From the IMG/VR virus record IMGVR_UViG_3300038460_000023, positions 1 through 55,841 of that record: DNA of 55,841 nt; one strand, 5' to 3'. The stretch is from a virus. Taxonomy: Duplodnaviria > Caudoviricetes. This document shows, piece by piece, positions 1,688 to 54,373 of the stretch (its first letter is position 1; each line of letters begins with the position of its first letter). The notes below the pieces were generated by a model that worked only from the letters and a program-made list of their open reading frames with translations, did not search any database and was not told the origin of the DNA. The position numbers and the translations under genes are program-made.

Positions 1688-1688
1688 C

Positions 1689-5849: not shown

Positions 5850-5880
5850 ATCCCCAGTATTTACACACTGGGGATTTTTT
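5850..5880 (+). terminator. Intrinsic terminator
   Basis: ATCCCCAGT...ACTGGGGAT stem followed by TTTTT. Confidence 0.8.
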
Positions 5881-5916
5881 ATGATATAAATCATAATTTA
5901 AAATTATGTAAATTTG
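5880..5916 (+). promoter_or_regulatory. Late promoter: palindrome TATGATATAAATCATA, 13 nt, then TAAATTTG
   Basis: Same motif and spacing as 1994-2030. Confidence 0.6.
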
Positions 5917-5931
5917 TAAAAACGAAAATTA

Positions 5932-36095: not shown

Positions 36096-36484
36096 TATAC
36101 TTGGTAATTATTGTAATATTCTTGCCAGTTTATACCCATTTCATGAGCAACAAGTCTTTCTATATTTTCAGCAAATCTGTGTTCTCGGATATATGGACTG
36201 TCGGGTTCGTTGCCAGCTTCGTCGGCAAATCCGCCTTGATCGTCTATTTTTTTATCGAAAGCGTCGATATCCTCTTCTTTTATGCCTCTTATTTCAGTTA
36301 ATCTTTGCTCGACAAGTTCGTGTATGCTGATAAGAAATGCTTCGTTGTACGAGTTTTCGTCCTTCATATATGCCTTAACGATTTTATTTCCATTGGGAAG
36401 AGTTTTGTAAGTTCCTAGTCCGTGATTGTCGATCATATTTGGATCATCCGTAAATTCTATAATAATCGTATGTAATGTTGACAT
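36095..36484 (-). CDS. Conserved phage protein with HELVE / EH metal-binding-like motifs
   Basis: ISIHELVE...EAGNEPDSPYIREHRFAENIER; coupled to the ATP-grasp gene; TAACTTTG box at 36498-36505 (-). Confidence 0.65.
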   Translation of the reverse strand: MSTLHTIIIEFTDDPNMIDNHGLGTYKTLPNGNKIVKAYMKDENSYNEAFLISIHELVEQRLTEIRGIKEEDIDAFDKKIDDQGGFADEAGNEPDSPYIREHRFAENIERLVAHEMGINWQEYYNNYQV

Positions 36485-36506
36485 ATGTTTGTTTTTACAA
36501 AGTTAA

Positions 36507-37148
36507 TCAATAAGATTTATGGAAATTACGTATTTTGCCCTCACTCCACCTATTGTTAGACCATTCTATATTATCTATATATTCATTACCATATGGATCT
36601 TTCTTTATAGCAAATCCAAGGTTATTAGGATTTGGAATCCAAGTAGTGGCTATAAGTCTCAAGAAACCTCTTCTTATCCTTTTGCCTTTAAACGTTAGGG
36701 CTATTTCCTCTTTATAGGAAATCAACTTTTCCGGAGATTTATATTTAATTCCATTTTTAAGACTTATTACTCTTGGCAATGCTCTTATACGTCCGAATGT
36801 CGAAGCTTCGTAATAATTTTCAAGTCCCGGAATCGTCTTCCATATTTCTATACCTCCTTTTTCTTTTAATATATACTCTATTTTATTGAATTCGCATGCA
36901 TATGATGGATTAGTATCGTAATCTCTTTTAACTATCTTAAGTGCATGTATAACTGTAGTCCTGTCTCTTCCAAAGCTCTTACCTATAACTTCGTCGGATC
37001 CGGTTTTAAATTCATGAGATAATGACATTGCTATTTGTCTTGGTTTTACAATATTTCTTTTTCGTGTATCTTCAGAAAGTTTTTCGACTGGTATATTGAA
37101 AAAACCAGCAACTTCTTTTTGTATTTGTTCAATTGTTAATACGACCAT
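36507..37148 (-). CDS. DnaA C-terminal HTH domain fused to a NUMOD4 domain
   Basis: PRQIAM.L......IG..FGRDRTTVIHA motif, then EIWKTIPGLENYYEASTFGRIR. Confidence 0.8.
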   Translation of the reverse strand: MVVLTIEQIQKEVAGFFNIPVEKLSEDTRKRNIVKPRQIAMSLSHEFKTGSDEVIGKSFGRDRTTVIHALKIVKRDYDTNPSYACEFNKIEYILKEKGGIEIWKTIPGLENYYEASTFGRIRALPRVISLKNGIKYKSPEKLISYKEEIALTFKGKRIRRGFLRLIATTWIPNPNNLGFAIKKDPYGNEYIDNIEWSNNRWSEGKIRNFHKSY

Positions 37149-37150
37149 AA

Positions 37151-39718
37151 TTAAAAATCTTCGTTTGATTCTAAATCCCTGTTTGATTCTATTGAATATC
37201 CCGGAGCGGTGTTTGTGTCCGGATGAGCCTTTTCTTTACTTATGATGGGAAGGGAATCGTCGTCAACATCGAATATTCGAGTCAATGATTTATTGTGACC
37301 AAAATCTATGTCACCGGTGTCGCCCTCTTTGTTTTTAGCCAAGATTAAAATTCCTCTACCTACAGTACTATTTCCGTTTTCATCTTCTAATATCCCATAC
37401 TGAGCCGGCCTGTATGTAAGTATCACTAAATCAGCATCTTGTTCGATTGAATTATGAGTTATAATGCCATTAGCTACGAAGTTATGCAACTTAGGAACTT
37501 CTATATCATAAACTTTGTGAACGCCAATTGACTCTATGCTTTTTATTGGCATAAAGCACAATGTCCTGTTTTTATTATATTCATACTTATTCCATCCGGC
37601 TAAGTTGTCTTTTGATTTATTCCATCCATTTATCATTACGTCATTTTTTCTTTTATTTATAAATCCTATATTATTTACAAATAATTCAATATTTAATTTA
37701 CCTGCGATATATAGATTTTTCCAACTTTGTCCTTTTTTATTAGAGCTACCTGTCACAAATGAGACTATACCTACATGTAATAATAACCCTTGGAGCCCAT
37801 TTATCAACTCATCACTTGCGGACGAATAAGATATTTTAAGAGATCTTCTCCCTTCTTTTTCTTGATAGTACACCGTACCATCGCCGCTAAACAATGCTTT
37901 TATGAAAAGGCATATTTGTCTTTTAGGCAAAAAGAATAATTCATCCGGAATAAATTTCTCCTTAGTTCTCTTATTAAACAAGCCGTATTTTTTCATTATA
38001 TCTCCAATCGGATTTGTTTTACCGGGAGCTAAATGTATAGTTGGCCTGAAGAACACAGTTGAAAATTTAGATTTCGCCGTATTGGTCACTACGACCCTTG
38101 GTTCTACTTTATTGTCAGTACAGTCTTTTGCGTCCGACATTATCTTGTCTGCTAAATCAGAGTCCTCTTGATTTATAGTGACTGTTATAGCATGACTCTT
38201 AAGGCAGCATCCATTTGAAATAAAATGTCCAAGAATACTTACTTCAGAATCTTTTATGTCACACATTTTTGTTTCTATGCCTAATGGAATAGCAATGCTC
38301 TCGTTATTTAAGCTATCAACCTCTTTCCAGCCGTTAGGAGTGAGGAATTTATGATTAGAAGTAGCAGATATGCTTTGCCCATTTATAAGTGTTATTTTAA
38401 AAACCTCCTTCTCTCCAGTTGAGAAGCATTTTTTAGCTTTTATTTCATTGTTTATGGTACTGTCTGTGGCTACAATTGTGAACGATTCGCAATTGTCCAG
38501 ATCTTTGATGAGAATGTTTTTCTTAAGACTTGGGCTGTATATTTTTGTGTCGCCATGAAGGCACCCAGATTCTCTAAGATCACTCATTTGTGGCCTTTTA
38601 CTTTGTCTATCTTCTACTTTTCTACTTAATTGGGATAATGCAAATACAGGCACATCTAACTCTTTAGCCATTTGTTTGCACTTCCTACTAATTATAGCAA
38701 TCTCTTGTTCCCTATTCCCGCCCTTTAGCGTTTCTTTAACTAGCTGTAGGTAGTCTATTATTATCATTGTACACTTTCCTTGTTTCTTAAGCCTTCTGGA
38801 TCTGCTTTTTATTATATCTATTGAAGCTACAAACCCGTCATCAATAATAATATCCATTTTAGATAAACTGTATTCAGCATTAGAAAGCTGTATCCATTCT
38901 GCCGGAGTTAAAAGCCCCATAGTGTAATTGTCGTAACTCACATCAGCTTCTCCGGCAAGTATTCTGTCCGCTATTTTTACGCTTACTGTTTCTAAGGAGT
39001 AGAAATTTGGATGTCCGCCACGCCTCGCATCTTCCTTTGCGATGGCTACTGCTAATGCGGTTTTACCGGTAGAGGGCCTGGCTCCAATAATTATAAGATC
39101 TCCGCCTCTCCATCCACCAGTAAATTTGTCTAATTTTTTGATAGGTGTTTTTATTCCAAGCACTTCGCCTTTCTTTTGCAATACCTCTCTTTGCTGAGCT
39201 TGATCAGATGCCTTCTTAAGTAATTTTGGAAAAGATAAGTCCTTATCCGATTCGGCAGATACAATGTTTGAAGCAGCATCAACCATATTTACCGAATCAC
39301 TCATCAAGTCCTCAACACCAACTAAATCATCATATGCCTTATTAACAATTTCCATCCCAACCCTTATCATCTCTCTTTTAAAAGCTTTTTCCTTAATAAG
39401 GGCAACGAAAAAAGGAATATTGTGATATACCGCTCCAACACTCATTAGCTGAGTTAAAAAGTATCTTCCACCAACTTCCTCCAATGTGTTTGTTTTACCC
39501 ATTTGATCGCAAACCGTCAGAAGATCGATTGGTAGGTTCTTAGAATTAAGTTCTAGGATAGCGGAGAATATTTTCTGGTGCGCATCTTTATAGAAGTATT
39601 CTACCTTTAGGTCTACAGCCTCGTCTAATAGGTCTGAGAACGCAATAATGTCAGCGAGTAAAGATTCTTCTATTTCGATGCACTGAGGAGGTATTTTGCC
39701 TAAATCGAATCCTATCAT
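37151..39718 (-). CDS. dnaB: Replicative DNA helicase with intein
   Basis: GARPSTGKT Walker A, IIDYLQL, LSQLSR, SDLRESG|intein|SIEQDAD. Confidence 0.95.
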   Translation of the reverse strand: MIGFDLGKIPPQCIEIEESLLADIIAFSDLLDEAVDLKVEYFYKDAHQKIFSAILELNSKNLPIDLLTVCDQMGKTNTLEEVGGRYFLTQLMSVGAVYHNIPFFVALIKEKAFKREMIRVGMEIVNKAYDDLVGVEDLMSDSVNMVDAASNIVSAESDKDLSFPKLLKKASDQAQQREVLQKKGEVLGIKTPIKKLDKFTGGWRGGDLIIIGARPSTGKTALAVAIAKEDARRGGHPNFYSLETVSVKIADRILAGEADVSYDNYTMGLLTPAEWIQLSNAEYSLSKMDIIIDDGFVASIDIIKSRSRRLKKQGKCTMIIIDYLQLVKETLKGGNREQEIAIISRKCKQMAKELDVPVFALSQLSRKVEDRQSKRPQMSDLRESGCLHGDTKIYSPSLKKNILIKDLDNCESFTIVATDSTINNEIKAKKCFSTGEKEVFKITLINGQSISATSNHKFLTPNGWKEVDSLNNESIAIPLGIETKMCDIKDSEVSILGHFISNGCCLKSHAITVTINQEDSDLADKIMSDAKDCTDNKVEPRVVVTNTAKSKFSTVFFRPTIHLAPGKTNPIGDIMKKYGLFNKRTKEKFIPDELFFLPKRQICLFIKALFSGDGTVYYQEKEGRRSLKISYSSASDELINGLQGLLLHVGIVSFVTGSSNKKGQSWKNLYIAGKLNIELFVNNIGFINKRKNDVMINGWNKSKDNLAGWNKYEYNKNRTLCFMPIKSIESIGVHKVYDIEVPKLHNFVANGIITHNSIEQDADLVILTYRPAQYGILEDENGNSTVGRGILILAKNKEGDTGDIDFGHNKSLTRIFDVDDDSLPIISKEKAHPDTNTAPGYSIESNRDLESNEDF
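37451..38563 (-). mobile_element. Intein (371 aa) with LAGLIDADG homing endonuclease
   Basis: Starts CLHGDT and ends HNFVANGIITHN, followed by Ser; internal ILGHFISNG and FIKALFSGDG motifs. Confidence 0.92.
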
Positions 39719-40089
39719 AATTTTTTGAATTGAGGTAATCTTATACTTATCTTAGTATTTATAGGTTCTTGCTCTTTCTTACTTCTCTCCCAAGTCCGAA
39801 CCGCCGCCTTCCAATCTTTCATCTTATTTTTGCCGATCATCCAGTTCTTAGCTGTATAAAAATTAAACCACTTATCCGGATCTACATCGTTTTTTCTTTC
39901 TTGGCAATATGATTGAACATCTTCGATAGGAGGAGGAGTAAAAGCTTCCCTAACCTTTTTGGTTGTTATACCAGGGCTAATACCCTGGCATGAACATTGA
40001 GTTACGAAAGGCGAATGAACCGTGAAGCATACTGGACATTGCCAGCCTTGAGCTATTTTTGCCATATTATTTCCTTTCTCTTCTCTCAA
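39715..40089 (-). CDS. Zn-ribbon plus replication-initiator C-terminal-like domain
   Basis: GWQCPVC...CSC followed by FTPP.IEDV..YC.ER...F.FY....W..GKNKMKDWKAAVRTWE; directly upstream of dnaB. Confidence 0.65.
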   Translation of the reverse strand: MREEKGNNMAKIAQGWQCPVCFTVHSPFVTQCSCQGISPGITTKKVREAFTPPPIEDVQSYCQERKNDVDPDKWFNFYTAKNWMIGKNKMKDWKAAVRTWERSKKEQEPINTKISIRLPQFKKL

Positions 40090-40405
40090 TTATGTCAATA
40101 CTCGGATATAGATTAAAAATATTTTTATCAACTTTTCTTATTTCTAATCCATTTTTGAATATAAATCCTCGATCATGAATAAATTTAATCACTTCATAAT
40201 CGTTATTCATAGTTCTACTTTTATTTTCAACCTTTCTTTCGATAAAATTGAAATACGTAATCCTGTCTTTTATCCCAATCGTTTCACAAAGGTCAAGAAG
40301 ATTAAATTTACCATTAACGGTTGCAACGAAAGTTTTAGACATTTCTTCTTTCATATTTAGTATTTTTTGCTCTTTAGATATGTGAAACATTTTTACCTTT
40401 GTCAT
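40067..40405 (-). CDS. Hypothetical protein
   Basis: ORF within the operon. Confidence 0.5.
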   Translation of the reverse strand: MTKVKMFHISKEQKILNMKEEMSKTFVATVNGKFNLLDLCETIGIKDRITYFNFIERKVENKSRTMNNDYEVIKFIHDRGFIFKNGLEIRKVDKNIFNLYPSIDIIERRERK

Positions 40406-40407
40406 AG

Positions 40408-40635
40408 CTATTCATTATCAATTATAAATTCGACAGTATCAATTTTCATTCTATCGGTCTTTCTTTTTGCGGCAGCCGGATACTATATTTTTTCACTCTT
40501 AGCAAAAGAGGTTAAAGTTTTTAAACCAAGGATAGCAGATACATCTTGTATGATATTTACAAGTTCGGTATTTTCAACCTCTCCATTATGTATACAAGTC
40601 ATTAACCTGTCGTAAATTAGTTCGCTTCGTGTCAT
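40408..40635 (-). pseudogene. Small ORF interrupted by an in-frame TAG
   Basis: MTRSELIYDR...FAKSEKI*YPAAAKRKTDRMKIDTVEFIIDNE*; TAG at 40483-40485; fills the gap between neighbouring genes. Confidence 0.45.
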
Positions 40636-40681
40636 TGGTTTAAAATTTTAAACTGTGTTTATATAGGTGTTATCGGCAACC

Positions 40682-41089
40682 TTAAGAGTCTCCGGCCGTA
40701 AGTGCATCGTTTAAACTGTCAATTACGTCACCCATATTATAAGCTGCTTGAAATAAGTATTCATCTCCGCCAAGTTCGGCAATGGTTTCGATATGTAATT
40801 TTAAGCAAGCAGACTTATAAATTAAGTCGTTGATAATATTTGTCATTCCCTTTTCAGATGCTTCTTCCATTGATATGGATAAATCATCACCACAGTTTCC
40901 ACACATGGAAGCATCTTCTATATCACTAATACTGTTTTCGCATTTACATTTTCTTCCATTTCCTTCAGCTATTTGAATAGCTTCTAAAACTTTACCCTTT
41001 ACCTGCATTCCTACTTCAGATAAATCCTGGTTCCTTAAAAATATTTCTACAGATTTTAAGGCATTTAACATTTGTTTTTCTTTTGTCAT
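40682..41089 (-). CDS. Cassette 1 gene, hypothetical (CxC...CxxC)
   Basis: 135 aa; stop lies 4 nt from the GTTATCGGC boundary. Confidence 0.7.
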   Translation of the reverse strand: MTKEKQMLNALKSVEIFLRNQDLSEVGMQVKGKVLEAIQIAEGNGRKCKCENSISDIEDASMCGNCGDDLSISMEEASEKGMTNIINDLIYKSACLKLHIETIAELGGDEYLFQAAYNMGDVIDSLNDALTAGDS

Positions 41090-41123
41090 ATATTTAGTTA
41101 TTAATTATTTAACAATAAAGGCA

Positions 41124-41219
41124 GCCGATAACACGCAATATAAAAAATTGGCTATCAAACTGCTGTGTAACTTGAAAGTGACTACAAAGCCAACTTTTCA
41201 TATTGCCACCGTTATACGC
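41124..41219 (+). repeat. attC-like site 1
   Basis: GCCGATAAC AC GCAATAT AAAAAATTGGCT...AGCCAACTTTTC ATATTGC CACC GTTATACGC. Confidence 0.85.
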
Positions 41220-41221
41220 AA

Positions 41222-41425
41222 TTAAGATTCTGCCAACTTTGAGATGGTTGCAATATAAGTTTCATTGCATCTCGTCCTTTGATTTTGCCAATCAATAAAC
41301 TTCTCCATTAGTTTGTCATTACCTGTATTTGAAATCATTTCGACAAGTTCAGTTTCAATTTTTGATAAACTTTCAACTTGCTTTTTATGTATTTCAATTT
41401 TAGTTTGAATTAGTTTTTCATTCAT
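41222..41425 (-). CDS. Cassette 2 gene, hypothetical
   Basis: 67 aa; stop lies 2 nt from the core site. Confidence 0.65.
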   Translation of the reverse strand: MNEKLIQTKIEIHKKQVESLSKIETELVEMISNTGNDKLMEKFIDWQNQRTRCNETYIATISKLAES

Positions 41426-41429
41426 AATT

Positions 41430-41573
41430 TTATTTTTTACGTTTTTTCTTTTTAGGAGTAAAATTTGTTACTTTTTTACGGTGTTTTTTGAAATATCCAT
41501 CTTCAGTAATCCAATCAGGGTCTTCAACTAAAATTATATTTCCGTTTCCGTCTGTTTTCTCAATCATTCTCAT
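41430..41573 (-). CDS. Cassette 2 small basic protein (47 aa)
   Basis: MRMIEKTDGNGNIILVEDPDWITEDGYFKKHRKKVTNFTPKKKKRKK; not in the ORF track. Confidence 0.55.
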   Translation of the reverse strand: MRMIEKTDGNGNIILVEDPDWITEDGYFKKHRKKVTNFTPKKKKRKK

Positions 41574-41603
41574 ATAGTTTCGATTTAAAAATTAATAATA
41601 AAA

Positions 41604-41736
41604 GCGTATAACAACAAATATAAAATAAAGCGGGTTATCTGCGTTTCGTAGCGTCAGCTCGCATCAAAGTTTATTGCAGTTTGATAACTCTGCTCACCAA
41701 ATACCGCTTCATTTCATATTTGCGACCGTTATATGC
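41604..41736 (+). repeat. attC-like site 2
   Basis: GCGTATAAC AA CAAATAT AAAATAAAGCGG...CCGCTTCATTTC ATATTTG CGACC GTTATATGC. Confidence 0.85.
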
Positions 41737-41747
41737 AAGGCGAAGAA

Positions 41748-41924
41748 TCACTCCGAATTAAGTTTAGTGGGAGTAATTTTATTATTTTTTTTGCTCACCC
41801 GCTTTAAAAATTCACGAATAAGCATAGTTGTTTGCCCTCTCATACTTCGGTTAAGCTCTTTACATGCTTTCATATAGTCTGCATGTTCTTGGTCGGTAAG
41901 TTCTACTTTTTCAATAGTTTTCAT
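41748..41924 (-). CDS. Cassette 3 ribbon-helix-helix-like regulator (58 aa)
   Basis: MKTIEKVELTDQEHADYMKACKELNRSMRGQTTMLIREFL...; ATGA overlap with the upstream gene; not in the ORF track. Confidence 0.55.
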   Translation of the reverse strand: MKTIEKVELTDQEHADYMKACKELNRSMRGQTTMLIREFLKRVSKKNNKITPTKLNSE

Positions 41925-42127
41925 CCTTCAGTTATATCGTGATGTCCTAATCCACTAGGGTTATTATTTCCATTCAATAGTGATGTAAAAGGATAGACTA
42001 AATCAGATTCTGGAAATTTAATCAAATACTTTTCTATGTACTTACGAGCTTTTTCTTTATCTCCATTTAATGCAGATTCGGCTATTTTAACCAATTCGGT
42101 ATAGCCTTTAGTTCTTGGTATTTCCAT
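41921..42127 (-). CDS. Cassette 3 hypothetical protein
   Basis: 68-aa ORF in a tight three-gene operon. Confidence 0.6.
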   Translation of the reverse strand: MEIPRTKGYTELVKIAESALNGDKEKARKYIEKYLIKFPESDLVYPFTSLLNGNNNPSGLGHHDITEG

Positions 42128-42128
42128 T

Positions 42129-42344
42129 TTATTTAATTATTACGGTTTTAAGAGTTTTTTCATTAATTAACATCCAGTCTTCATGCCCACCATCATAGAT
42201 ATTTACATCATATGTAAATCTTACTATTTTATATCCAACATTAGACATCTTGTTTTGAATCGTTTTTCCATTTACCATTTTCATACCTGCAAACACTGGT
42301 ACTCTTTTTTCTGTTGTGGCTGTTTTATTACTTATTAAATTCAT
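42129..42344 (-). CDS. Cassette 3 hypothetical protein
   Basis: 71-aa ORF immediately after the internal promoter. Confidence 0.6.
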   Translation of the reverse strand: MNLISNKTATTEKRVPVFAGMKMVNGKTIQNKMSNVGYKIVRFTYDVNIYDGGHEDWMLINEKTLKTVIIK

Positions 42345-42370
42345 GGCTATTTGTTTTAATTATTATACGT

Positions 42371-42402
42371 CAAAATTACGTAATAGTTTCGTAATAAACA
42401 AA
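42371..42402 (-). promoter_or_regulatory. Cassette-internal Bacteroidota sigma-A promoter
   Basis: On the - strand: TTTG-N20-TAATTTTG, with direct repeats TATTACG in the spacer. Confidence 0.65.
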
Positions 42403-42484
42403 TAATTTTAAAGAAAAATAACCCACCCTAAAAAAATAATAAAATTACCTTGCTTCGTGTTAGTTTATAGCTGAAAAACGCCCA

Positions 42485-42580
42485 GCATATAACACCGTAT
42501 ATAAAACATAGCCAGATAGTTTAGCGATTAATTGCAAGGTTCGTGCGTGGCTACGTTTCATATACGCCAACGTTATGTGT
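42485..42580 (+). repeat. attC-like site 3
   Basis: GCATATAAC AC CGTATAT AAAACATAGCCA...TGGCTACGTTTC ATATACG CCAAC GTTATGTGT. Confidence 0.85.
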
Positions 42581-42584
42581 AATA

Positions 42585-42848
42585 CTAAGCCAGTTCGCCA
42601 AATGGATAAAATTGAATAGTAATACCACAATTTGATTCAAGTTCCGCAATTATATGACCATCTTTAAAGCATTGATATACGGTTGTTGTTATATCGTTAT
42701 ACATTCCTTTACCTATTGTTTTTTCAAATGGCTTAATTTCATCGACTTTATGAAATACGGATTCGCATTTTTTATCAGTAGAAAACCAAATTGAGTCTTC
42801 GCCAAATCCGCGTTCAATTGTCCTAATTTTTTGATTTTTAGTTTCCAT
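42585..42848 (-). CDS. Cassette 4 gene, hypothetical
   Basis: METKNQKIR..., ATG at 42848; the frame stays open into attC4. Confidence 0.65.
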   Translation of the reverse strand: METKNQKIRTIERGFGEDSIWFSTDKKCESVFHKVDEIKPFEKTIGKGMYNDITTTVYQCFKDGHIIAELESNCGITIQFYPFGELA

Positions 42849-42862
42849 AATAATAAAGTAAA

Positions 42863-42998
42863 ACACATAACACACGCTCATACGTAACGTGGGTTTTAGT
42901 GCCAATTTGGTACGGTCTGCTTCTAATTTAGTCCAGTAACGTGGGATAAGTAACCGCTTCGAAATCCCACGCTACGCATAGCGTCAACCGTTACCAGC
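42863..42998 (+). repeat. attC-like site 4
   Basis: ACACATAAC AC ACGCT(C)AT ACGTAACGTGGG...CCCACGCTACGC ATAGCGT CAACC GTTACCAGC; one bulged C in the left arm. Confidence 0.85.
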
Positions 42999-43053
42999 AA
43001 TGTTAAAAAAGTGGCGGAGGTTGCTTCTCTGTTGTTCCCGAAGGAGCTTTAAT

Positions 43054-43860
43054 TTATTCACCACTTAAACGGTCTTTTGTTATTTTTATCGCTTTAGGAT
43101 TAATATCACAACCAATAAAATTACGGTTTAATTCTTTGCATACTTCGGCAGTTGTTCCGCTACCTAGATAAAAGTCTGCGACTAAATCACCTTCATTACT
43201 ACTTGCTTTTATTATTCGTTCAATTAATGCTTTTGGTTTTTGAGTATCATATCCAAGCCTTTCTTTTGAAACAGGGTTTAAAAACGGAATATCCCAAACA
43301 TCGTCAACAATTCTATCAGTTTGTATATGGTATTCTATTTCTCCGTTTTCATTTCTTAAACTTTTACCTTTCCCATCATTCTTATTCTGTTTCTTTGGTT
43401 TATTTATTGGCTCTCTAATTTCAGTTACTATATTTTTATTACCATACATCAAAATTACATCGTGCATATTTTGCCACCTATCTTTTGAAGTCATTGTCCA
43501 TCTTTTATACCTCCACGATATTTCATTTTTAAAACAGTTATACCCAAAAACATCATCCATAATACATCTCATCCAATGGTTTATTTTAGTGTCCATTTGT
43601 AAATAAATACTTCCTGTATCTTTTAAAATACGGTGCATTTCTTTTATTCGTGGTATGTAGTGGTTTTCAATTTCACTTCTAATTGGTTTTAAATCTTGGT
43701 AGTCTGCAAACTTCCTACCAGTTCCGTAAAGTATATCACAGTAAATTAAGTCTATTGTGTTACTTTCAATGGTTTTCATTAGCTCCAAATTATCGGAACA
43801 AAAAACACTGCTGGTAACACCGTGTATAGGTAATGTGGGGGTTTGTTGTAATTTAATCAT
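43054..43860 (-). CDS. Cassette 5 DNA methyltransferase (N4-C/N6-A, beta class)
   Basis: IDLIYCDILYG (DPPY variant), YDTQKPKALIERII, VADFYLGSGTT. Confidence 0.88.
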   Translation of the reverse strand: MIKLQQTPTLPIHGVTSSVFCSDNLELMKTIESNTIDLIYCDILYGTGRKFADYQDLKPIRSEIENHYIPRIKEMHRILKDTGSIYLQMDTKINHWMRCIMDDVFGYNCFKNEISWRYKRWTMTSKDRWQNMHDVILMYGNKNIVTEIREPINKPKKQNKNDGKGKSLRNENGEIEYHIQTDRIVDDVWDIPFLNPVSKERLGYDTQKPKALIERIIKASSNEGDLVADFYLGSGTTAEVCKELNRNFIGCDINPKAIKITKDRLSGE

Positions 43861-43943
43861 TTGTTCTCGTATTTAAGTTATTTGTAATTTGACAGGGCAG
43901 TGCTTCGTAATCCCACACTACCCATACACGAACCGTTAGCATT
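43810..43943 (+). repeat. attC-like site 5
   Basis: GCTGGTAAC AC CGTGTAT AGGTAATGTGGG...CCCACACTACCC ATACACG AACC GTTAGCATT. Confidence 0.85.
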
Positions 43944-43947
43944 CATA

Positions 43948-44175
43948 CTAAAACCACGCATCAGCATCATAGGTTTCAGTTAATTTAACAACTCTGAATT
44001 TTACATCTGGAGTTATTTTCTTTTCAGCTTCCGCAAGTTCTTTTGCCTGTTTACGGTTTAAGAATTTATGATAGTATTCTTTTGTCTTTTTATTGTGCGT
44101 ATGATAAACTATTTCAGGTGCTTCACCTTCTTTTTGTGCTTGCACGTAATAATGAATAATTGATTGTTTTGCCAT
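43948..44175 (-). CDS. Cassette 6 gene, hypothetical
   Basis: 75 aa; stop lies 4 nt from the core site. Confidence 0.65.
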   Translation of the reverse strand: MAKQSIIHYYVQAQKEGEAPEIVYHTHNKKTKEYYHKFLNRKQAKELAEAEKKITPDVKFRVVKLTETYDADAWF

Positions 44176-44211
44176 TTTATTTATAAATTAATGATTAATA
44201 ATAAAGTACGA

Positions 44212-44345
44212 AATGCTAACACATAATATAAAAAATTGGGGTTTAATCGGTAATTCCGATTTTTCTACCCGCTTGAAACTTTGTAGCGGTTGATAATGGA
44301 GTAGCCACGCAATCCCCAACTTTTCATATTATCAACGTTAGGCAC
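44212..44345 (+). repeat. attC-like site 6
   Basis: AATGCTAAC AC ATAATAT AAAAAATTGGGG...CCCCAACTTTTC ATATTAT CAAC GTTAGGCAC. Confidence 0.85.
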
Positions 44346-44373
44346 AATACAAAGACCGTGCTTCGTTGATACA

Positions 44374-45174
44374 TTAGTTTAAGTTTGGTATTTGTTCTTT
44401 TAAGTATTTACTAATCATCCAATGTTTAAGTTTAGGTGTTGCTGTCATATTATACAATTCTTTCCAATCAACATTTTGAATGAGTTTCTTAATTTCGTCT
44501 TTAAATTCTGTGTTGTTTATTGTAAAGTATATTTGTTGGCAATATTGCCCCTCATATTCGCATATTTTGCCAATGCTCGAACCAAACCCACACACACTAA
44601 AATCGTAACTTGTAGGTATTTTATCATTTCTACTTTTACCATTTGCAACGCCTCTTAATTCAACATCTTTTAAATCAAAATTTGGTTTCTGATTTAATCC
44701 ATTTGGGTTTCGTTTGTAAATATTTAATACACAATGCACCGTTCTATCACTATATTTTCTTTTTCCCAAATCCTCGCTATAAACCAAATCAAACTCATAC
44801 ATATACATGTTGTTGTTTAATTGGCTTATTGGTAATATAAAAGCCACATAGTCACCTTGTGTTATCGCATTCTTAAAAAACTGCACACTTGTATAATTTC
44901 CTTTGCCGTATGGCGGATTTCCAACAATACACCTACCTTTAAAATAAGGCAAATCTAATTCTAAGTAGTTTTTTTGTTCAATATTTTCCGCTTCGGGTTC
45001 AATATCAAAAGCAAGGTAGTTATTGTCTAAGTAAGGTAAAAATATACCACTCCCCGCACTTGGCTCTAACCATTGGGTTATGTTTTCAACTCCAATTACT
45101 TCCTTTGTTTTCTTCACACAATATTCTGCTAAATCAGAAGGTGTGTAGTATTTGTCTAAATTTATTTTTGCCAT
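44374..45174 (-). CDS. Cassette 7 DNA adenine methyltransferase
   Basis: DKYYTP, LEPSAGSG, GNPPYG and AFILP motifs. Confidence 0.85.
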   Translation of the reverse strand: MAKINLDKYYTPSDLAEYCVKKTKEVIGVENITQWLEPSAGSGIFLPYLDNNYLAFDIEPEAENIEQKNYLELDLPYFKGRCIVGNPPYGKGNYTSVQFFKNAITQGDYVAFILPISQLNNNMYMYEFDLVYSEDLGKRKYSDRTVHCVLNIYKRNPNGLNQKPNFDLKDVELRGVANGKSRNDKIPTSYDFSVCGFGSSIGKICEYEGQYCQQIYFTINNTEFKDEIKKLIQNVDWKELYNMTATPKLKHWMISKYLKEQIPNLN

Positions 45175-45197
45175 AATTTTGAATTTAATAAAGTACT

Positions 45198-45292
45198 GTG
45201 CCTAACACAGTGTATAAGCAATGGCACGGAAAGTTAGTGCTAATTTGAAAGTGCGTACAAGTGCCACTGCTCATACACGAAACGTTATGGGC
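45198..45292 (+). repeat. attC-like site 7
   Basis: GTGCCTAAC ACA GTGTAT AAGCAATGGCAC...GTGCCACTGCTC ATACAC GAAAC GTTATGGGC. Confidence 0.85.
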
Positions 45293-45337
45293 AACCGTAA
45301 GACCGCTCCGAAGAACAGTCCTACGAACCCCAAACTT

Positions 45338-45631
45338 TTACAATATGACATTTTTAGCCATATTGATTTCTTTGTTAGAAAGTAGCCGATAACATTGTTC
45401 AAATACTTTCTTTGGTGACCAACTAACATATCCATCTTCGTAAGTGACCATATAGCCATCGCCATAAGTTTCACGGTCTGAAATGTCTTGTTTCTTAACG
45501 TTCTTGTAAAAGTCTGTCTCTGTCATTGGAACTCCTTTTACAATTTTAGTTCCAACATAGAGTTCCGTATTTAGATACTCTTGTCTTGAATTAATGCACG
45601 AAGGCTGGAAATCATCTTTTATGTCGTCCAT
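45338..45631 (-). CDS. Cassette 8 phage protein (YxGTK...GYxVxYEDGYxSWSPK domain)
   Basis: YVGTKIVKGVPMT...GYMVTYEDGYVSWSPKKVFEQCY; I recall this domain as often fused to DUF2829-type proteins. Confidence 0.7.
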   Translation of the reverse strand: MDDIKDDFQPSCINSRQEYLNTELYVGTKIVKGVPMTETDFYKNVKKQDISDRETYGDGYMVTYEDGYVSWSPKKVFEQCYRLLSNKEINMAKNVIL

Positions 45632-45684
45632 AGTATTAATTGGATTTTATAAAGCCCGTCCAAGGCTATATCTTAAAAACGGCA

Positions 45685-45784
45685 GCCCATAACACGTTGT
45701 ATACGTCAGTTTTGCTGAATAATTTCGTATAAATTGGTAGCTGTGTGCAGGCAAAACCGAACGCATACAACCACCATTATTATT
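45685..45784 (+). repeat. attC-like site 8 (terminal, degenerate core)
   Basis: GCCCATAAC AC GTTGTAT ACGTCAGTTTTGC...GCAAAACCGAACGC ATACAAC CACC ATTAT (ATT in place of GTT at 45776). Confidence 0.75.
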
Positions 45785-46292
45785 TTGTTTTACTCTTCTT
45801 AGAAAGGGCCGGGATTGGATCTGGAATAGAGTCGCCCTCCCGGCCCGATGCAAAGTTCTCGGCATAGAATTTTTGCATATTTGAATAATAGTGCATCGCA
45901 TCTTCGACGCTCATCTTTTTAGTTGTTAACCGGAATGGAGTTTTAAAAAACTTTCCAGTTCTGATGTCTTTTAGAGACGGTATGGCCTCCCATTCCTTTT
46001 TAAGCCTTTCTTTGTAATCTTCTGGAAGGCAATAGTACATACAAAATTCGTGGGTTTGCTCCTTGGAAGGATTCTCAAAATGACCGGTTTCTTTTAGCAC
46101 TCTATTGAAAAATGCGTAAGGAATGCCCCACATTGCATTGTTCTGGTCAAGACTTCTTATGTTTTCAACCTTTTCAATAGTGTATATGTAGCGACCATAT
46201 TTAAGATTCGAAATGGCATCTTGGAATTTTTCTCTTTCGTGAATTTCCTTTTTGCCAGTTTCGGTTACATCAACCCATGTTTGTATTTTCAT
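45780..46292 (-). CDS. NinB-like protein
   Basis: RSLDQNNAMWG and TTKKMS.ED...Y...IPDP motifs. Confidence 0.6.
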   Translation of the reverse strand: MKIQTWVDVTETGKKEIHEREKFQDAISNLKYGRYIYTIEKVENIRSLDQNNAMWGIPYAFFNRVLKETGHFENPSKEQTHEFCMYYCLPEDYKERLKKEWEAIPSLKDIRTGKFFKTPFRLTTKKMSVEDAMHYYSNMQKFYAENFASGREGDSIPDPIPALSKKSKTK

Positions 46293-46567
46293 TCTGTTGC
46301 TTTTTTAATAGCTTCTTTCATTTGAGCATAACTACTATATAATTCACTTTTAGTTTCTCCGAAGTCGCATTTTCTTATGAATTCGACACATGCTTCAAGT
46401 AATTCGGGAGCGGCGGCAGCTAATTTTGCATTATAACATGCCCTGCTGCACGAATCCTGATCAAGCAGATCTGGATCTCCATATTCATCCTTTCTTTGGA
46501 AGCTATATCTTCCGGCATACTCTACGGCGAACCAAGGCCCCGGCGTGTGTTTTAAATTATCACTCAT
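46289..46567 (-). CDS. Phage protein (HTPGPW...NAKLAAAAPELLEA family)
   Basis: Characteristic family motifs. Confidence 0.7.
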   Translation of the reverse strand: MSDNLKHTPGPWFAVEYAGRYSFQRKDEYGDPDLLDQDSCSRACYNAKLAAAAPELLEACVEFIRKCDFGETKSELYSSYAQMKEAIKKATE

Positions 46568-46749
46568 TCTATTTTATTTAATTCGTTTTCAACTTCACTA
46601 TCATTCATTGAATATATTATCAATCCAATAATTGTATCATCGACATGGTTGTATATCCATTCCTTACGCTCAGTTTTCGACATTGTTTTTGTTACAATGT
46701 TTGACAATTCGGATCTTTCGTTGCTGTTTTTGTTATCCACTTTACTTAT
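46564..46749 (-). CDS. Hypothetical protein (start uncertain)
   Basis: C-terminal part (MSKTERKEWIYN...) is coupled to the next gene; the ORF-track extension overlaps the ATPase gene. Confidence 0.3.
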   Translation of the reverse strand: MSKVDNKNSNERSELSNIVTKTMSKTERKEWIYNHVDDTIIGLIIYSMNDSEVENELNKIE

Positions 46750-48124
46750 TTTTAAGAAGTTTTGCGTATTGCTTAAAACAATATTCCGGATCGTCATCTG
46801 ATTCAATTCTAAATTGAGACTTTATAATTTCCCACATGTCTGAATCTTTGAAGTTTTTAGACACGTATATGACCTTTTTATGAACATCGGCCACACAGGT
46901 AAGTCCACTTATCTTAGATTCGATTACTGGGAACGTGACAGTAAAATTATTAGCCCTACATATTTCTAAAATTTCTTCTCCAAACGTCTTATCTTTCGTT
47001 ATTTTTAAATCCGGTTTCAATATTTCAACTTTTGTATCAGCCCAATAATAGCTAGGAGAGTTTACTTTTACTTTCTTGAATCCGATGTCTATTCGTAGGT
47101 CCTCCATGAGTTTTGTGAAAAGATTCGAATTTGTCATGAATACTTCGCTTCTTTCCGTAGATGATATATACGTTTCATTAACAACTTCGGCCCATTCGTC
47201 ACTTAATTCGCACCAAAAATGCAGTTTAGATTCAAACAAATCTTCATCATGACGTTCTATCAACTTTTGAATAAAAGTATTGTTATGGCAATAGCAGAAG
47301 CATTCCTCGATATGATCTTTATATGAATTAAAATCATTAAGAAGCCTCATTTCATCTATAGAAGCTCTTTTGAAATCATATACGAATCTACTTTTAACAC
47401 TCTTGTTTTCGTGTATAAGGATCTTGTTTTTGTATAATCTTAAATGTGAATCAAGATCGTTATTTTCGAACACCTTAAGATCGTCATATTCGTAAATCGG
47501 AGTTTCGTCTTTGAGAAAATATTTATCCCAATTATTTATTATTTCATCGAGCTTTTCATTACTCCATATACAGATCAATGTAGAGTCTGAAGGTCCTTTC
47601 GATAAATTTTTGAGATCAGAAAATTCAACTTCGCCATCTTCATCAAGGCAATTGCTGTACAATTCGCGTATAGCCATCCATACTTTCCATTCATGACCAA
47701 GTTGAGGGCTAAATGCTGTTATGTGAACTATAGGATCTGCTTCACCTTCCATATCCGAACAGTGAGATCCTTCGCATAAATTATATGGGTTAGTATTTAC
47801 ATGTCCGTTATAATGAATATCAGCACATTTTTTACAAGTGTTTTCAGACGGCTCGGATTTTGTTCTGTATTCATTTACAATTAATAGCTCCTTTGTTTTT
47901 TTTGTTGAATCGTCAGCCGTAACTACAGTAGTAGAAAATTCATATTCAGAATTTCCGCTTAATATACTAACCTCTATGCCATTTCGATATAAAACAGCAA
48001 GAGCGTACTTAAGCCCAGAGTCAAACTTCCCGATCTTTGTCGGGTCATCTCTTTTAATGGAGTCCCCCATTGTTGTTATGTCCAACAATGAGAGAATTCC
48101 TTTGTTTTTGAAGATAATATTCAT
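46742..48124 (-). CDS. GHKL/HATPase-like ATP-binding protein
   Basis: MGDSIKR..KIGKFDSGLKYALAV and AIRELYSNCLDE motifs; likely ATG at 48124. Confidence 0.7.
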   Translation of the reverse strand: MNIIFKNKGILSLLDITTMGDSIKRDDPTKIGKFDSGLKYALAVLYRNGIEVSILSGNSEYEFSTTVVTADDSTKKTKELLIVNEYRTKSEPSENTCKKCADIHYNGHVNTNPYNLCEGSHCSDMEGEADPIVHITAFSPQLGHEWKVWMAIRELYSNCLDEDGEVEFSDLKNLSKGPSDSTLICIWSNEKLDEIINNWDKYFLKDETPIYEYDDLKVFENNDLDSHLRLYKNKILIHENKSVKSRFVYDFKRASIDEMRLLNDFNSYKDHIEECFCYCHNNTFIQKLIERHDEDLFESKLHFWCELSDEWAEVVNETYISSTERSEVFMTNSNLFTKLMEDLRIDIGFKKVKVNSPSYYWADTKVEILKPDLKITKDKTFGEEILEICRANNFTVTFPVIESKISGLTCVADVHKKVIYVSKNFKDSDMWEIIKSQFRIESDDDPEYCFKQYAKLLKNK

Positions 48125-48125
48125 A

Positions 48126-48392
48126 TTATAAATACTTGGCTTCAATTTCACCAATCAGATCAATTCGTTCCTGGGCCTTTTTAAGCTTAGCGTAAAGTAC
48201 TAAGAATTGATCATCGAGAGATAGGTTCGGGTCAGCAATCCAGTCATCGACGAATTGTTCGGCATCGATAAGCTCAAGCTCTGCCTTACTTTTAAGTGCG
48301 TTAATAACTGCCTGGTCCTTTTTACCCACTGAAAGGAAATCAGAATTCTTTTCTTTGTCTGCTTTTGATTTTAAAATTTCTACTCTTGTCAT
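48126..48392 (-). CDS. Hypothetical coiled-coil protein
   Basis: 88-aa ORF within the operon. Confidence 0.65.
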   Translation of the reverse strand: MTRVEILKSKADKEKNSDFLSVGKKDQAVINALKSKAELELIDAEQFVDDWIADPNLSLDDQFLVLYAKLKKAQERIDLIGEIEAKYL

Positions 48393-48422
48393 GTTCTTAA
48401 TATTAAAGATTAATTAATGTGT

Positions 48423-48986
48423 TTATGATACTAATTTGTAAATCTGAATTAATAGCGACACGTCATACTCCGCATCATGGAGCTTTGTTTCATCAACTTT
48501 AATTCCAAGTTTTTTGGCAACCGTTCGTTGTTGAAAATTTGGAAACGAGGCTCGTTCTCCTTTGAATTTATTTGAAGCCAGTACGTAGCAATCTATTGAG
48601 TCCGGCCAGAACCACGAACCAAAATATTGATCACTGTTTTGAACAAAGAAGGCTCTAAAAAAAGCATTGTCGAATGAATTGTTATTATACCCAACCAGAT
48701 GAAACTTATCCGTCTTATTGAATTTGTCCACGTATTTCGCAAGCATACTTACAAGTTCTTTGTACACAAAATCCATGTCAAGGTATTTCATAATCTGTTC
48801 GCGGGTAACATTGCCTACTTTTAAAGCTTCGTCTTCAATTTCAGCTTTCTCGAAAGGCTTTACTCTAAAGTTGAATTTTTCAACAATTTCACCGTCGATC
48901 ATGATTGCACCGGACATTTGATGAATACCATTGCGCCAGTATTTAACGCCGGTTGTTTCGAGATCGTAAAAGAATAATTTTTCCAT
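48423..48986 (-). CDS. DEDDh 3'-5' exonuclease
   Basis: YDLETTG, GYN..FD and LHDAEYD motifs. Confidence 0.9.
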   Translation of the reverse strand: MEKLFFYDLETTGVKYWRNGIHQMSGAIMIDGEIVEKFNFRVKPFEKAEIEDEALKVGNVTREQIMKYLDMDFVYKELVSMLAKYVDKFNKTDKFHLVGYNNNSFDNAFFRAFFVQNSDQYFGSWFWPDSIDCYVLASNKFKGERASFPNFQQRTVAKKLGIKVDETKLHDAEYDVSLLIQIYKLVS

Positions 48987-48991
48987 TTATT

Positions 48992-49942
48992 TCAAAGAAT
49001 TAACACGCTTTCCCATTCCTCCTTAAGAGTTTTTGTAATTATAACCGGCTTTTCACCAACTTTAGTCACTCCATTAAACGATTTGTTCGTTGGCGAGGGA
49101 TAATAGCTCGAATCACTATTTAAGCAAATCCAAAGCCTATTTGCGGCATTTTGACATAGAGCAGTGGACTCCTCCAAGCTCAAGTATTTAAAGTCAAATG
49201 TCGGGACTTTGGTATCCATCCAATCCTTTGTCCGGAGAACGGCTGTATTTTCAGCCTGAGTTTCATAAGTCTCATTCCACATCAACTGCTCGCATGCAAC
49301 TTGCTCCATCTGGTGTCCGGAGATTTGATTCGAAGTCTTAAGATTTATAGTCACGTTTTTAAACGCTCCCTTCTCAGTACACCGGCATGAGCAAAATAAA
49401 TCAATTGGCGTTGCAATTTTCATTGTCTTCCAGATAGCCGGTGTTTCAATAGCGTAAACTTCATGAACCCTTTCAAAGATAAATTGCATGAGAGAGGCCA
49501 CGTGTTTACAATATTCGTAAGACATCGCTTTTATTACCCGGAGATCCGGTTCGAGACTTTTGGCTTTGTAAGCATTTACAAAATAATCGTAAGCCTTGCC
49601 TTTTTCTTCACTCCAATTGATACCTCCCTTTTCTTTTATAGTAACTAGGGCCATGTGAAGTAAGGTTCCAAAATCAGCCGTCATGCCAACATAATCATCA
49701 GTATTCTTTTCACCGAATGAGCCGACCATCTTCTCGCGCCACTTTATAAGTCTTTTGTGATCGGGATTACCGGCAAAGGTGGCGGCACTTAGAGCTCCCG
49801 TAAGTCCAGAGAAGTATTCGAATGGCTCTTGCTGAATGTAAAGCCTATAACCCATGTAATTTACTCTGAACATTTTATTGAAGTTGCCGATTTTTAACAT
49901 GTTTTCGACAACTTCAATGTCTTTTATTTCTGATACTTCCAT
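48992..49942 (-). CDS. PD-(D/E)xK-like exonuclease
   Basis: L.KW, GTLLH, AIE, PIDL, NLKTS..Q motifs. Confidence 0.6.
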   Translation of the reverse strand: MEVSEIKDIEVVENMLKIGNFNKMFRVNYMGYRLYIQQEPFEYFSGLTGALSAATFAGNPDHKRLIKWREKMVGSFGEKNTDDYVGMTADFGTLLHMALVTIKEKGGINWSEEKGKAYDYFVNAYKAKSLEPDLRVIKAMSYEYCKHVASLMQFIFERVHEVYAIETPAIWKTMKIATPIDLFCSCRCTEKGAFKNVTINLKTSNQISGHQMEQVACEQLMWNETYETQAENTAVLRTKDWMDTKVPTFDFKYLSLEESTALCQNAANRLWICLNSDSSYYPSPTNKSFNGVTKVGEKPVIITKTLKEEWESVLIL

Positions 49943-50271
49943 TATAAATTTTCTTGTTTTAAAAGTTCGTCAGCCTGCATATAGCGTAATATCGTACGAC
50001 CCTTGATGTACCATGACACAAACTCTTTAGGATGCTTATCAACATCTGGACATGGCTCTCCAACTATTTCTTCTTGCAAACGTCTTGACCAGTTGTCAAA
50101 ATCCTCGCCTACCGAGCAAGCTGTTTTAAGACGTTTTGACATTCCCGGATCATAATTGATAATCTGCATGTTTCCATTTGGCAAGTAGATGCATATGGCG
50201 TCTCCAAAGCCTGCTTCATTCCATTTAAAGAATGGGTAAGCCGGCTCTTGACCTAATTTTTTATCGTCCAT
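49942..50271 (-). CDS. Phage protein (EPAYP...GMSKR...ADELL family)
   Basis: Characteristic family motifs. Confidence 0.6.
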   Translation of the reverse strand: MDDKKLGQEPAYPFFKWNEAGFGDAICIYLPNGNMQIINYDPGMSKRLKTACSVGEDFDNWSRRLQEEIVGEPCPDVDKHPKEFVSWYIKGRTILRYMQADELLKQENL

Positions 50272-53416: not shown

Positions 53417-53689
53417 CTAATAGCTTAAATTAAACAATTGATCCAATTTTTCCATATCCGAATCCCTTTCGTCTTCAGATTTATAATAGTGGAATACACG
53501 AGACTTATCGCCAGTCATGGCAAAGTAAATGTAAATCCCAAATTTACCACTAGTAGTACGGGTCGCTGTCTTTTCCTTGTCATTTGACAGGGCGACAGTG
53601 GAAGTTTCAAACGGCTCGTATCTTTTTATTGATACGGTCCGATACCTTATTTTTTGAATTTTAATAAACTCGGTTTTAGTTGTACTCAT
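53417..53689 (-). CDS. Hypothetical protein
   Basis: 90-aa ORF with an A-rich leader. Confidence 0.6.
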   Translation of the reverse strand: MSTTKTEFIKIQKIRYRTVSIKRYEPFETSTVALSNDKEKTATRTTSGKFGIYIYFAMTGDKSRVFHYYKSEDERDSDMEKLDQLFNLSY

Positions 53690-53704
53690 GATTTTAATTT
53701 TATG

Positions 53705-53938
53705 TTAAAAACTTTCAAATACTTTTTCCTGTAAAAACTCGATATCTTCTTTATCCAAAGAAACGGACGGCGAAATAAAGAGATACTTTAAAAAATATTT
53801 CATCTGCTTTAAGCTCATTTCTTTTATCAAAGTTACACACTGAGTACTTTGCCCGTTAATCTTAGAATCTATGATATAATCAAAGAATTCTTCCATGGTT
53901 TTAAAACCATATATTTTCAATGCCTTCTTGCTTACCAT
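53705..53938 (-). CDS. Hypothetical protein
   Basis: Likely ATG at 53938 (MVSKKALK...), just after the upstream stop. Confidence 0.6.
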   Translation of the reverse strand: MVSKKALKIYGFKTMEEFFDYIIDSKINGQSTQCVTLIKEMSLKQMKYFLKYLFISPSVSLDKEDIEFLQEKVFESF

Positions 53939-54290: not shown

Positions 54291-54373
54291 AATTTTATAT
54301 TTTATATTTGGTTTCATTACACCCCTTTCGGGGGTGTACTCTGAATTAATCCGGACTTGTAACCGGTAAAACA

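Follow-up and report, generated by a model that had tools for sequence, protein, structure and literature searches.

How does the early region of a tailed phage come to consist of small gene units bounded by matching hairpins? The question is raised by the 55,841-nt IMG/VR record IMGVR_UViG_3300038460_000023 (Duplodnaviria; Caudoviricetes), which was analysed at its full length and is referred to here as the window (G+C 36.5 %; completeness 79 % by CheckV). An earlier note, made from the sequence alone, had described an integron-like array of eight gene cassettes within it. This reading was upheld, with whole units changed at the cores in four comparisons. The array is probably an integron-type platform without its own recombinase, consisting of an attI-like half-site and eight circularisable gene cassettes.

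Split-core footprint of the array

Eight GTTA 9-mers had been reported, each the reverse complement of the 9-mer at the end of its own unit. All eight pairs were found in place and all are exact reverse complements (9/9). The two cores of one hairpin agree at 1-4 of the five variable bases, as weakly as the earlier note had claimed. When the five variable bases were compared 8 by 8, the pairs flanking a cassette all agreed at 5/5 and every other combination at 4/5 or less. With TAAC/GTTA held fixed, we calculate the chance of eight independent five-base matches as approximately (1/1024)^8. End complementarity extends further in seven of the eight pairs, through 9-10 bp, a mismatch of 1-2 nt and then another 3-4 bp.

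The proposed layout stood for its eight pairs and needed amendment at both ends: the last site closes with ATTA, not GTTA, and the left end is a half-site and not a hairpin. The resulting units are as follows.

40642-40668, plus strand: attI-like half-site, abutting the first core (...TATATAGGT|GTTA), 5' arm absent
40669-41210, plus strand: cassette 1, starting GTTATCGGC; inverse core 41124-41132, hairpin h1 41124-41219
41211-41727, plus strand: cassette 2; hairpin h2 41604-41736
41728-42571, plus strand: cassette 3; hairpin h3 42485-42580, with a 140-nt non-coding stretch upstream
42572-42989, plus strand: cassette 4; hairpin h4 42863-42998
42990-43934, plus strand: cassette 5; hairpin h5 43810-43943
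43935-44336, plus strand: cassette 6; hairpin h6 44212-44345
44337-45283, plus strand: cassette 7; hairpin h7 45198-45292
45284-45775, plus strand: cassette 8; last hairpin h8 45685-45784

The same footprint was found in other sets of sites. Full complementarity was present in 61/91 adjacent pairs versus 5/138 within-site pairs at IMG/VR loci, and in 37/43 versus 0/61 in bacterial arrays. For a mixed set, from which 16 of 73 rows were dropped as the core regular expression required TAAC and [GA]TTA, the values were 22/33 and 2/53. When each site was rejoined in silico to the start of its own cassette, the predicted minus strand fold deepened from between -15.0 and -23.2 to between -24.5 and -29.9 kcal/mol. 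When a circle carrying one perfect hairpin recombines at its core with another site, hybrid hairpins result in the linear array, so that the first bases of each cassette pair with its own inverse core. Such pairing is the classical integron cassette footprint. The crossover in integrons lies at G|TTRRRY, according to the part of Qi et al. 2023 (PMC9892861) drawn on here.

Structure of the hairpin sites

The units are separated by eight elements of 95-136 nt, each predicted to fold into an imperfect hairpin. The inverse core TAAC is present in 8/8 sites and the closing GTTA in 7/8. On the plus strand, the 5' arm consists of N5-TAAC, a 2-nt spacer, a 7-bp stem, an A.C mismatch and a 4-bp stem, followed by a second A.C mismatch, a stem of 5-6 bp, a variable loop, the return arm, a spacer of 4-5 nt and GTTA-N5. 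On the minus strand, which is the gene-sense strand, G.T wobbles replace both A.C mismatches and leave the stems fully paired; in 7/8 sites the hairpin is more stable there than on the plus strand.

Covariation was computed on a structure that we drew up for the eight sites. In total 88.8 % of cells were paired, versus 68 % in shuffles and 27-37 % when partners were slid, and both sides had changed in 13/21 stem pairs; the observed values were reached by 0/500 shuffles. A covariance model, R1, was then built from the same eight sites. Within the 55.8-kb window R1 recovered exactly these sites, on the plus strand only, at 65-122 bits, with at most 20 bits for the same loci on the minus strand and at most 13.8 bits for anything else. 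In alignments fitted to R1, the inner A.C mismatch was conserved in 61/64, 132/142 and 66/73 sites, and the spacer was asymmetric (2 nt vs 4-6 nt). The mismatch and the asymmetric spacer may together play the part of the bulged bases of classical sites. Searches of the hairpins and the region against Rfam gave no match, either at the gathering threshold or at E<=1.

The gene-sense stems, fully paired via G.U/G.T wobbles and the more stable form in 7/8 sites, are what would be expected if the hairpins were mainly RNA-level elements (terminators, or processing or stabilising stems) and genes were shuffled by homologous or microhomology recombination between them, as has been proposed for the promoter/stem-loop cassettes of T4-type phages. 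The 4-7 conserved bases common to both sides at every joint would also fit such shuffling. Homologous exchange, however, would neither make nor keep exact complementarity between the ends of a cassette. Signals of transcription were at or near chance: six terminator-like sites were found versus 3.0 +/- 1.6 in shuffles, only two of them touching a hairpin edge, and promoter-like sites were at chance (25 vs 26.0 +/- 5.0) in a sigma-70-type scan that leaves out Bacteroidota-type promoters.

Natural variants of the array

The earlier note had proposed to test whether whole units are gained, lost or reordered exactly at the GTT cores; gain, loss and relocation at these cores were observed in a metagenome run, among cultured phages and for cassettes 5 and 6. 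Runs X2, X6 and X7 were compared as assembled contigs only, and the uncovered parts of the stretch in X6 and X7 carry no information. In X6, an independent run from another study than the likely source sample, a 1,307-nt contig (depth 59, 0 mismatches) joins 40668|42990. It is without cassettes 1-4 and has the attI-like half-site directly joined to cassette 5. Only the four letters GTTA are common at this joint, an overlap very short for the homology-driven exchange that an RNA-level role of the hairpins would entail. Other X6 contigs contain the hairpin interiors of h1, h3 and h7 with different flanks, with breaks at TAAC or GTT. Two further joints were set aside: 41735|42486 in X6, one side of which has only 20 letters, and 42566|45773 in X2 (38 letters, one extra letter, depth 4.9), which probably derives from a related hairpin and is not a simple deletion product.

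Among isolates, the Flavobacterium phages mumin6-1/6-2 match mumin6-3/6-4 at 99.9 % identity across 14 kb, apart from one 506-bp segment. This segment is one cassette with gp008, cut core to core, and the ambiguity of the joint is limited to AACGTTA. In L003, a relative whose array flanks are 81-85 % identical to the window, approximately 1.07 kb with two other cassettes stands where the window has 5.2 kb. Cassette 6 occurs at a different locus in L003 with 79 % identity, bounded by the 9-mers. Its ends have changed jointly, from GCATT/AATGC in the window to GCAAA/TTTGC in L003, and these compensatory changes, 280 bp apart, are left unexplained by homologous exchange. L003 also has a second small array at another locus (reverse complement, ~19417-20045), after a homologue of window 53418-53703, which opens with the same attI-like half-site and has two cores with ATTA in place of GTTA.

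An 868-nt match at 96.3 % identity covers cassette 5 together with h5 in L091, a phage contig that is otherwise unrelated to the window over its 8.6 kb. The matching stretch opens with the conserved GTTACCAGC start, on the far side of a 35-nt indel, and runs as far as the next GTTAGC. In L009 the homologous segment covers the methylase and h5 up to the next core, with an unrelated hairpin on the left, and the same 9-mers flank the cassette 5 homologue. These limits of homology indicate that the hairpin on the plus strand 3' side belongs to the cassette. A megablast search of 36000-50000 against cultured phages matched the methylase gene alone.

The absence of an integrase and the degenerate ATTA core of the last site would fit an inert fossil, a piece of host integron acquired once by illegitimate recombination and no longer mobile, and integrase-less attC clusters are commonly interpreted as integrons in decay (Neron et al. 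2022, in the part used here). A fossil is very improbable for this array, given that its split cores are perfect and its stems intact in all eight cassettes, and that core-to-core variants coexist in nature and among isolates. Its gene polarity is moreover the reverse of that in host arrays (see below), so the array is not a simple copy of a host array.

Distribution of the site family and gene polarity

The search of phage and Bacteroidota genomes with a model built from the eight sites, proposed as a check in the earlier note, found the site family in both. R1 matches were obtained in cultured Flavobacterium (Muminvirus) and Polaribacter (Incheonvirus) phages, and Polaribacter phages P12002L and P12002S carry small elements of the family. 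Among loci selected with a methylase as bait, R1 matched 45/80 from IMG/VR, for which the bait was the cassette 5 methylase (142 matches at E<=1e-3, of which 141 were antisense to the methylase), and gave 62 matches at E<=1 in contigs of Bacteroidota metagenome-assembled genomes (MAGs), 61 of them antisense. In a Chitinophagales MAG, an array of these sites follows a tyrosine recombinase gene on its downstream side, and the rmlA/rmlB genes nearby mark the surroundings as clearly bacterial; an RloB/AAA_21 pair is among its cassettes. Bacteroidota chromosomal arrays downstream of Xer-like recombinases were seen at L045 (G002:C43) 112-8880 and in L079-L090, with a cargo that includes a defence-like RloB + AAA_21 pair and proteins with type IX secretion system (T9SS) tails.

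Gene polarity was taken from the longest open reading frame (ORF) between sites, relative to the R1 model strand. In the recombinase-linked bacterial arrays this ORF was sense in 41/49 cassettes and antisense in 8. For the window and the cultured phages it was antisense in 12/13, the sole exception being an artefact of a trimmed methylase gene. Methylase-bearing MAG contigs (antisense in 26/29) and IMG/VR loci (antisense in 75/88, sense in 13) had the phage polarity. Opposite gene polarity in bacteria and phages indicates that the asymmetry of the site follows the DNA element and not the transcript, which argues for a role of the hairpins at the DNA level. With the same asymmetric site sense to the genes in bacterial arrays and antisense in phages, we regard hairpins that serve mainly as RNA elements, shuffled by homology, as quite improbable. 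On a 215-kb bacterial contig, L046 (G001:C9:1-20000), most cassettes are sense and three methylase-bearing ones are antisense as in phages; this mixture hints at cassette traffic between phage and host arrays.

Recombinases linked to related arrays

The earlier note had placed the recombinase outside the window, and no tyrosine, serine or Y1 recombinase was found in the record. A six-frame search of the whole 55.8 kb gave no PF00589 match, and no intI gene adjoins the array. PF00589 was likewise without a match in nine of ten array-bearing phage records, which include the complete genomes of mumin6-1, P12002L and P12002S, the 95 %-complete L003 and a 100 %-complete record. The remaining record, G555, is from a phage with a completeness rating of 100 % and encodes a 266-aa Xer-like recombinase that is 39 % identical to the bacterial one and scores best on NF040815. 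Its unit (L180 = G555:C1:7000-23000) comprises the following.

11291-12091, plus strand: recombinase
1654-11018, minus strand: eight sites

An attI-like motif adjoins the start codon of this recombinase, and the first cassette is flanked by GTTAGCAAC/GTTGCTAAC. Enzyme family and site family are together inside a phage too. The G555 recombinase gene is directed away from the site top strand, an orientation like that of intI in classical integrons.

In bacteria, homologues of the Chitinophagales MAG recombinase at E<=1e-60 were found in 62/401 sampled Bacteroidota genomes, and in 55/151 genomes of the genus of one Flavobacterium sp. record. A site lay within 1.5 kb at 12/27 recombinase loci, for which 1.5-kb flanks were covered. 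All 12 downstream regions that were extended hold co-oriented arrays, with 64 sites and up to 22 in 20 kb. Each of ten array-linked recombinases (10/10) scored best on NF040815, 'site-specific tyrosine recombinase/integron integrase', on which the Bacteroidota and phage enzymes reach 170-248 bits over their full length, only some of them attaining the 220-bit cut-off. On TIGR02249 they stay below the cut-off (139-223 bits vs 265) and align over the N-terminal half only. They fall outside IntI in that the IntI-specific extra domain is skipped. The Chitinophagales MAG recombinase matches Pyrococcus abyssi XerA (4a8e) over its full length and as well as it matches IntI4, and aligns with VchIntIA in two pieces, 8-182 and 243-318, skipping residues 183-242.

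The left end of the array may provide a link to these enzymes. A hairpin followed by TATA(T/A)A-N2-4|GTT(A/G)N4(C/T)AA is located 70-110 nt past the stop codon of 11 array-linked recombinase genes. The left half-site of the window, TTTATATAGGT|GTTATCGGCAA, fits this motif and also the motif adjoining the phage recombinase in L180, and it recurs at two places in L003, with 6 mismatches at one and 2 at the other. Two candidates were rejected on inspection: an empty attI-like site at 53690-53715, and linkage of a tyrosine recombinase to the G001:C9 array, which lies 16 kb away.

The same mechanism could run on a recombinase encoded by the phage itself, either in the fifth of the genome that the 79 %-complete record does not sample or in an unrecognised protein family of the window, where many early proteins have no family. 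The complete phage G555, with its recombinase adjoining the array, is a precedent. We consider this unlikely, as nine of the ten array-bearing phage records are without PF00589, three complete cultured genomes among them, and the attI-like end of the window abuts a small ORF (40483-40635, minus strand), not a recombinase gene; the genes further left are conserved in L003.

Proposed mechanism

The integron-type cassette array is real and well preserved, and evidently active; a recombinase from elsewhere would act on it. What was observed comprises the site structure and its covariation, the split-core footprint, cassettes gained, lost and relocated from core to core, and a linkage between the families of sites and recombinases. 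The favoured explanation is the following. Read on the plus strand, a cassette would run from G|TTA-N5 through one or more opposite-strand genes to N5'-TAAC, the hairpin interior and G. Its attC-like site would comprise a 9-bp R box, complete only once the cassette has been excised as a circle, and a co-varying stem of ~18 bp with the conserved A.C mismatch, a central spacer and a variable loop. A XerA/IntI-like tyrosine recombinase would cut the folded single strand at the AAC|GTTA core, and excise cassettes by recombination of site with site; insertion would take place either at the half-site or at a different site. Relatives of such an enzyme lie next to arrays of this site family in Bacteroidota and in one phage, and the recombinase would be supplied to the window phage by its host or by a co-infecting element. 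We infer the acting enzyme, the strand used, the circular intermediates and the timing. As the cassette genes are co-directed with the early genes and include two DNA methylases, the platform is probably a source of early accessory and anti-restriction genes that can be exchanged.

Several points weigh against this explanation. The window is without a recombinase, in a record that is 79 % complete, and a host enzyme would have to act on phage DNA. No circular cassette or excision junction was seen in the assembled contigs, and common cores of 4-7 nt could in principle support microhomology-mediated deletion. The last site carries ATTA, and the extrahelical bulged bases of classical sites are not evident, with no stem bulges predicted in 7/8 sites. 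Cassette 6 and its L003 homologue are followed by unrelated hairpins, which implies that the crossover is not always on one side and that exchange at the other core also seems to occur. R1 was trained on the eight sites of the window itself; the E-values it gives are approximate, and alignments fitted to it are biased towards the features that it contains. The IMG/VR and MAG loci reflect the methylase bait. Finally, the identity of the published P12002L attC sites with the elements seen there could not be confirmed.

A wider reading, which we hold as a little short of an even chance, is that Bacteroidota and their phages share an integron-like system largely missed by standard integron finders. 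This system would have a XerA-like recombinase without the IntI insertion and attC-type sites marked by the A.C mismatch and asymmetric spacer instead of bulges. Virulent phages would keep recombinase-less platforms, with an attI-like site and inverted-gene cassettes, and would rely on the enzyme of the host to exchange early genes that counter defence, DNA methylases for example; the whole system would be carried by a few phages, G555 among them. If so, integron-style gene capture would be a routine phage weapon in the arms race, and integrons would be far commoner in Bacteroidota than reported. Complete integrons were almost absent from Bacteroidetes in the IntegronFinder 2.0 survey, as described in the part of Neron et al. 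2022 consulted.

Comparison with known systems

The novelty suggested by the earlier note was overrated, as integrase-less attC clusters in virulent phages have already been published (Qi et al. 2023, PMC9892861). Among 10,705 phage genomes, the relevant part of that paper gives 17 clusters of attC sites lacking integrases (CALINs), with two or more predicted sites per cluster. Polaribacter phage P12002L, which is virulent, has one of these, accompanied by two methylase genes. Its sites are detected by HattCI+Infernal, and, of two P12002L sites assayed, P12002L_attC2 was recombined into attI1 by IntI1. With eight sites in 5.1 kb and no integrase, the window array is a CALIN by the definition taken from the consulted part of Neron et al. 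2022 (at least two close attC sites, no integrase nearby). Like the CALINs of virulent phages, it has attC-like sites between genes and no integrase. It differs from those of Qi et al. in having eight complete cassettes with an attI-like end, core-to-core gain and loss in populations, genes of inverted polarity and sites that are linked to a family of Xer-like recombinases. As far as our searches of the literature show, the eight-cassette platform with an attI-like end and its natural core-to-core variants go beyond Qi et al. 2023, as do the inverted polarity and the Xer-like recombinase family without the IntI insertion.

The array shares with classical and sedentary chromosomal integrons the AAC/GTT cores, structure-conserved hairpin sites, the split R' box, arrays of promoterless small genes and, apparently, insertion beside an attI-type site. 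In contrast to these, the window is without intI, the linked recombinases lack the IntI stretch of ~60 residues, the sites have an A.C mismatch and a spacer of 2 vs 4-6 nt with no evident bulged bases, and the phage cassette genes are antisense to the site top strand. The textbook attC consensus has RYYY/RRRY flanks, which the window sites do not keep. Integrons have reportedly also been described from archaea, by Ghaly and colleagues in 2022. Recombinases of the XerA type (NF040815) resemble the array-linked Bacteroidota and phage enzymes, which score best on that model; the linked enzymes differ in occurring in Bacteroidota and phages, beside cassette arrays, and in not acting at a dif site.

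The promoter early stem-loop (PeSL) cassettes of T4-type phages, said to have been described by Arbiol, Comeau and Krisch in 2010, reportedly have an early promoter fused to a stem-loop between genes. They resemble the window in small early genes flanked by a repeated stem-loop, a hyperplastic region and modular shuffling. The window has no promoter signal above chance in the sigma-70-type scan, and so lacks the early promoter of PeSL cassettes. Fixed AAC/GTT cores, the split-core footprint and a dedicated recombinase family point to site-specific exchange, as opposed to the homology-driven exchange of PeSL cassettes.

The natural variants show that a phage early accessory region is made of discrete, site-specifically exchanged cassettes. 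Mosaic phage genomes and the fast replacement of anti-restriction methylases are thereby given a concrete mechanism, and phage cassette arrays are linked to recombinases of a family that is common among the Bacteroidota genomes sampled. Methylase content reportedly tracks plating efficiency in related Flavobacterium phages (Nilsson et al. 2020, in the part used here); hairpins and cassettes have 0 occurrences in the main text of that description of the Muminvirus genomes. Since cultured phage-host pairs exist, the idea of cassette exchange is directly testable.

Cassette content and genomic setting

Every gene within the array is on the minus strand, in the same direction as the surrounding early and replication genes. 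The ORFs of the cassettes are as follows.

40682-41089, minus strand: cassette 1, 135 aa, no family
41222-41425 (67 aa) and 41430-41573 (47 aa), minus strand: cassette 2
41748-41924, 41921-42127 and 42129-42344, minus strand: cassette 3, three small ORFs
42585-42848, minus strand: cassette 4, 87 aa
43054-43779, minus strand: cassette 5, N6/N4 DNA methyltransferase (PF01555 at 5e-50)
43948-44175, minus strand: cassette 6, 75 aa
44374-45174, minus strand: cassette 7, DNA methyltransferase-like, 266 aa (PHROGs 799, 18657 and 6263, best 8e-13)
45338-45631, minus strand: cassette 8, 97 aa, PHROGs of unknown function

The cassette 7 ORF had no Pfam match, and comparison of its protein with the P12002S_0037 methylase, which has the same length, showed the two to be non-homologous. 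For cassette 1 no function was obtained from Pfam, PHROGs or ESM Atlas; the ESM Atlas matches were below 0.9, with a template-modelling (TM) score of at most 0.67 and a poor model. Pfam and PHROGs gave no function for the other small cassette ORFs.

In the non-coding leader of cassette 3 (42345-42484, 140 nt), TAATTTTG lies ~30 nt ahead of a start codon and resembles what we take to be the Bacteroidota -7 promoter box. Part of this stretch (~42395-42470) is also found at the left edge of the L003 array. The 9-mer pair GTTAGGCAC/GTGCCTAAC flanks both a methylase gene in P12002L (L048 5113-5900) and cassette 7 of the window (44337-45206), and GTTAGC(A/G)TTCAT is the start of three different cassettes: cassette 6 of the window, one in L091 and one in L003. 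At the right end of the array, the closing ATTA of h8 abuts the stop codon of a conserved 170-aa gene; the homologous last site in L003 closes with GTTA.

The array is thus placed between the small ORF at 40483-40635 and this 170-aa gene at 45780-46292. Large plus strand ORFs occupy 1-32.6 kb and are taken to be structural genes, family scans having been made elsewhere in the record. Minus strand early and replication genes occupy 32.9-55.8 kb. Besides an RNase T-like exonuclease, the replication genes include the following neighbours.

36507-37148, minus strand: DnaA-C protein with NUMOD4 motif
37151-39718, minus strand: DnaB-type helicase with an intein carrying a LAGLIDADG endonuclease domain

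The host of the phage is probably a member of the Bacteroidota. Parts of the stretch are present in 20 peat, permafrost and soil runs from 15 studies, a limited habitat signal. At 54304-54374 on the minus strand, within the early region, a type-P3 twister ribozyme (56.4 bits vs a gathering score of 39.9) overlaps the ORF at 53940-54374.

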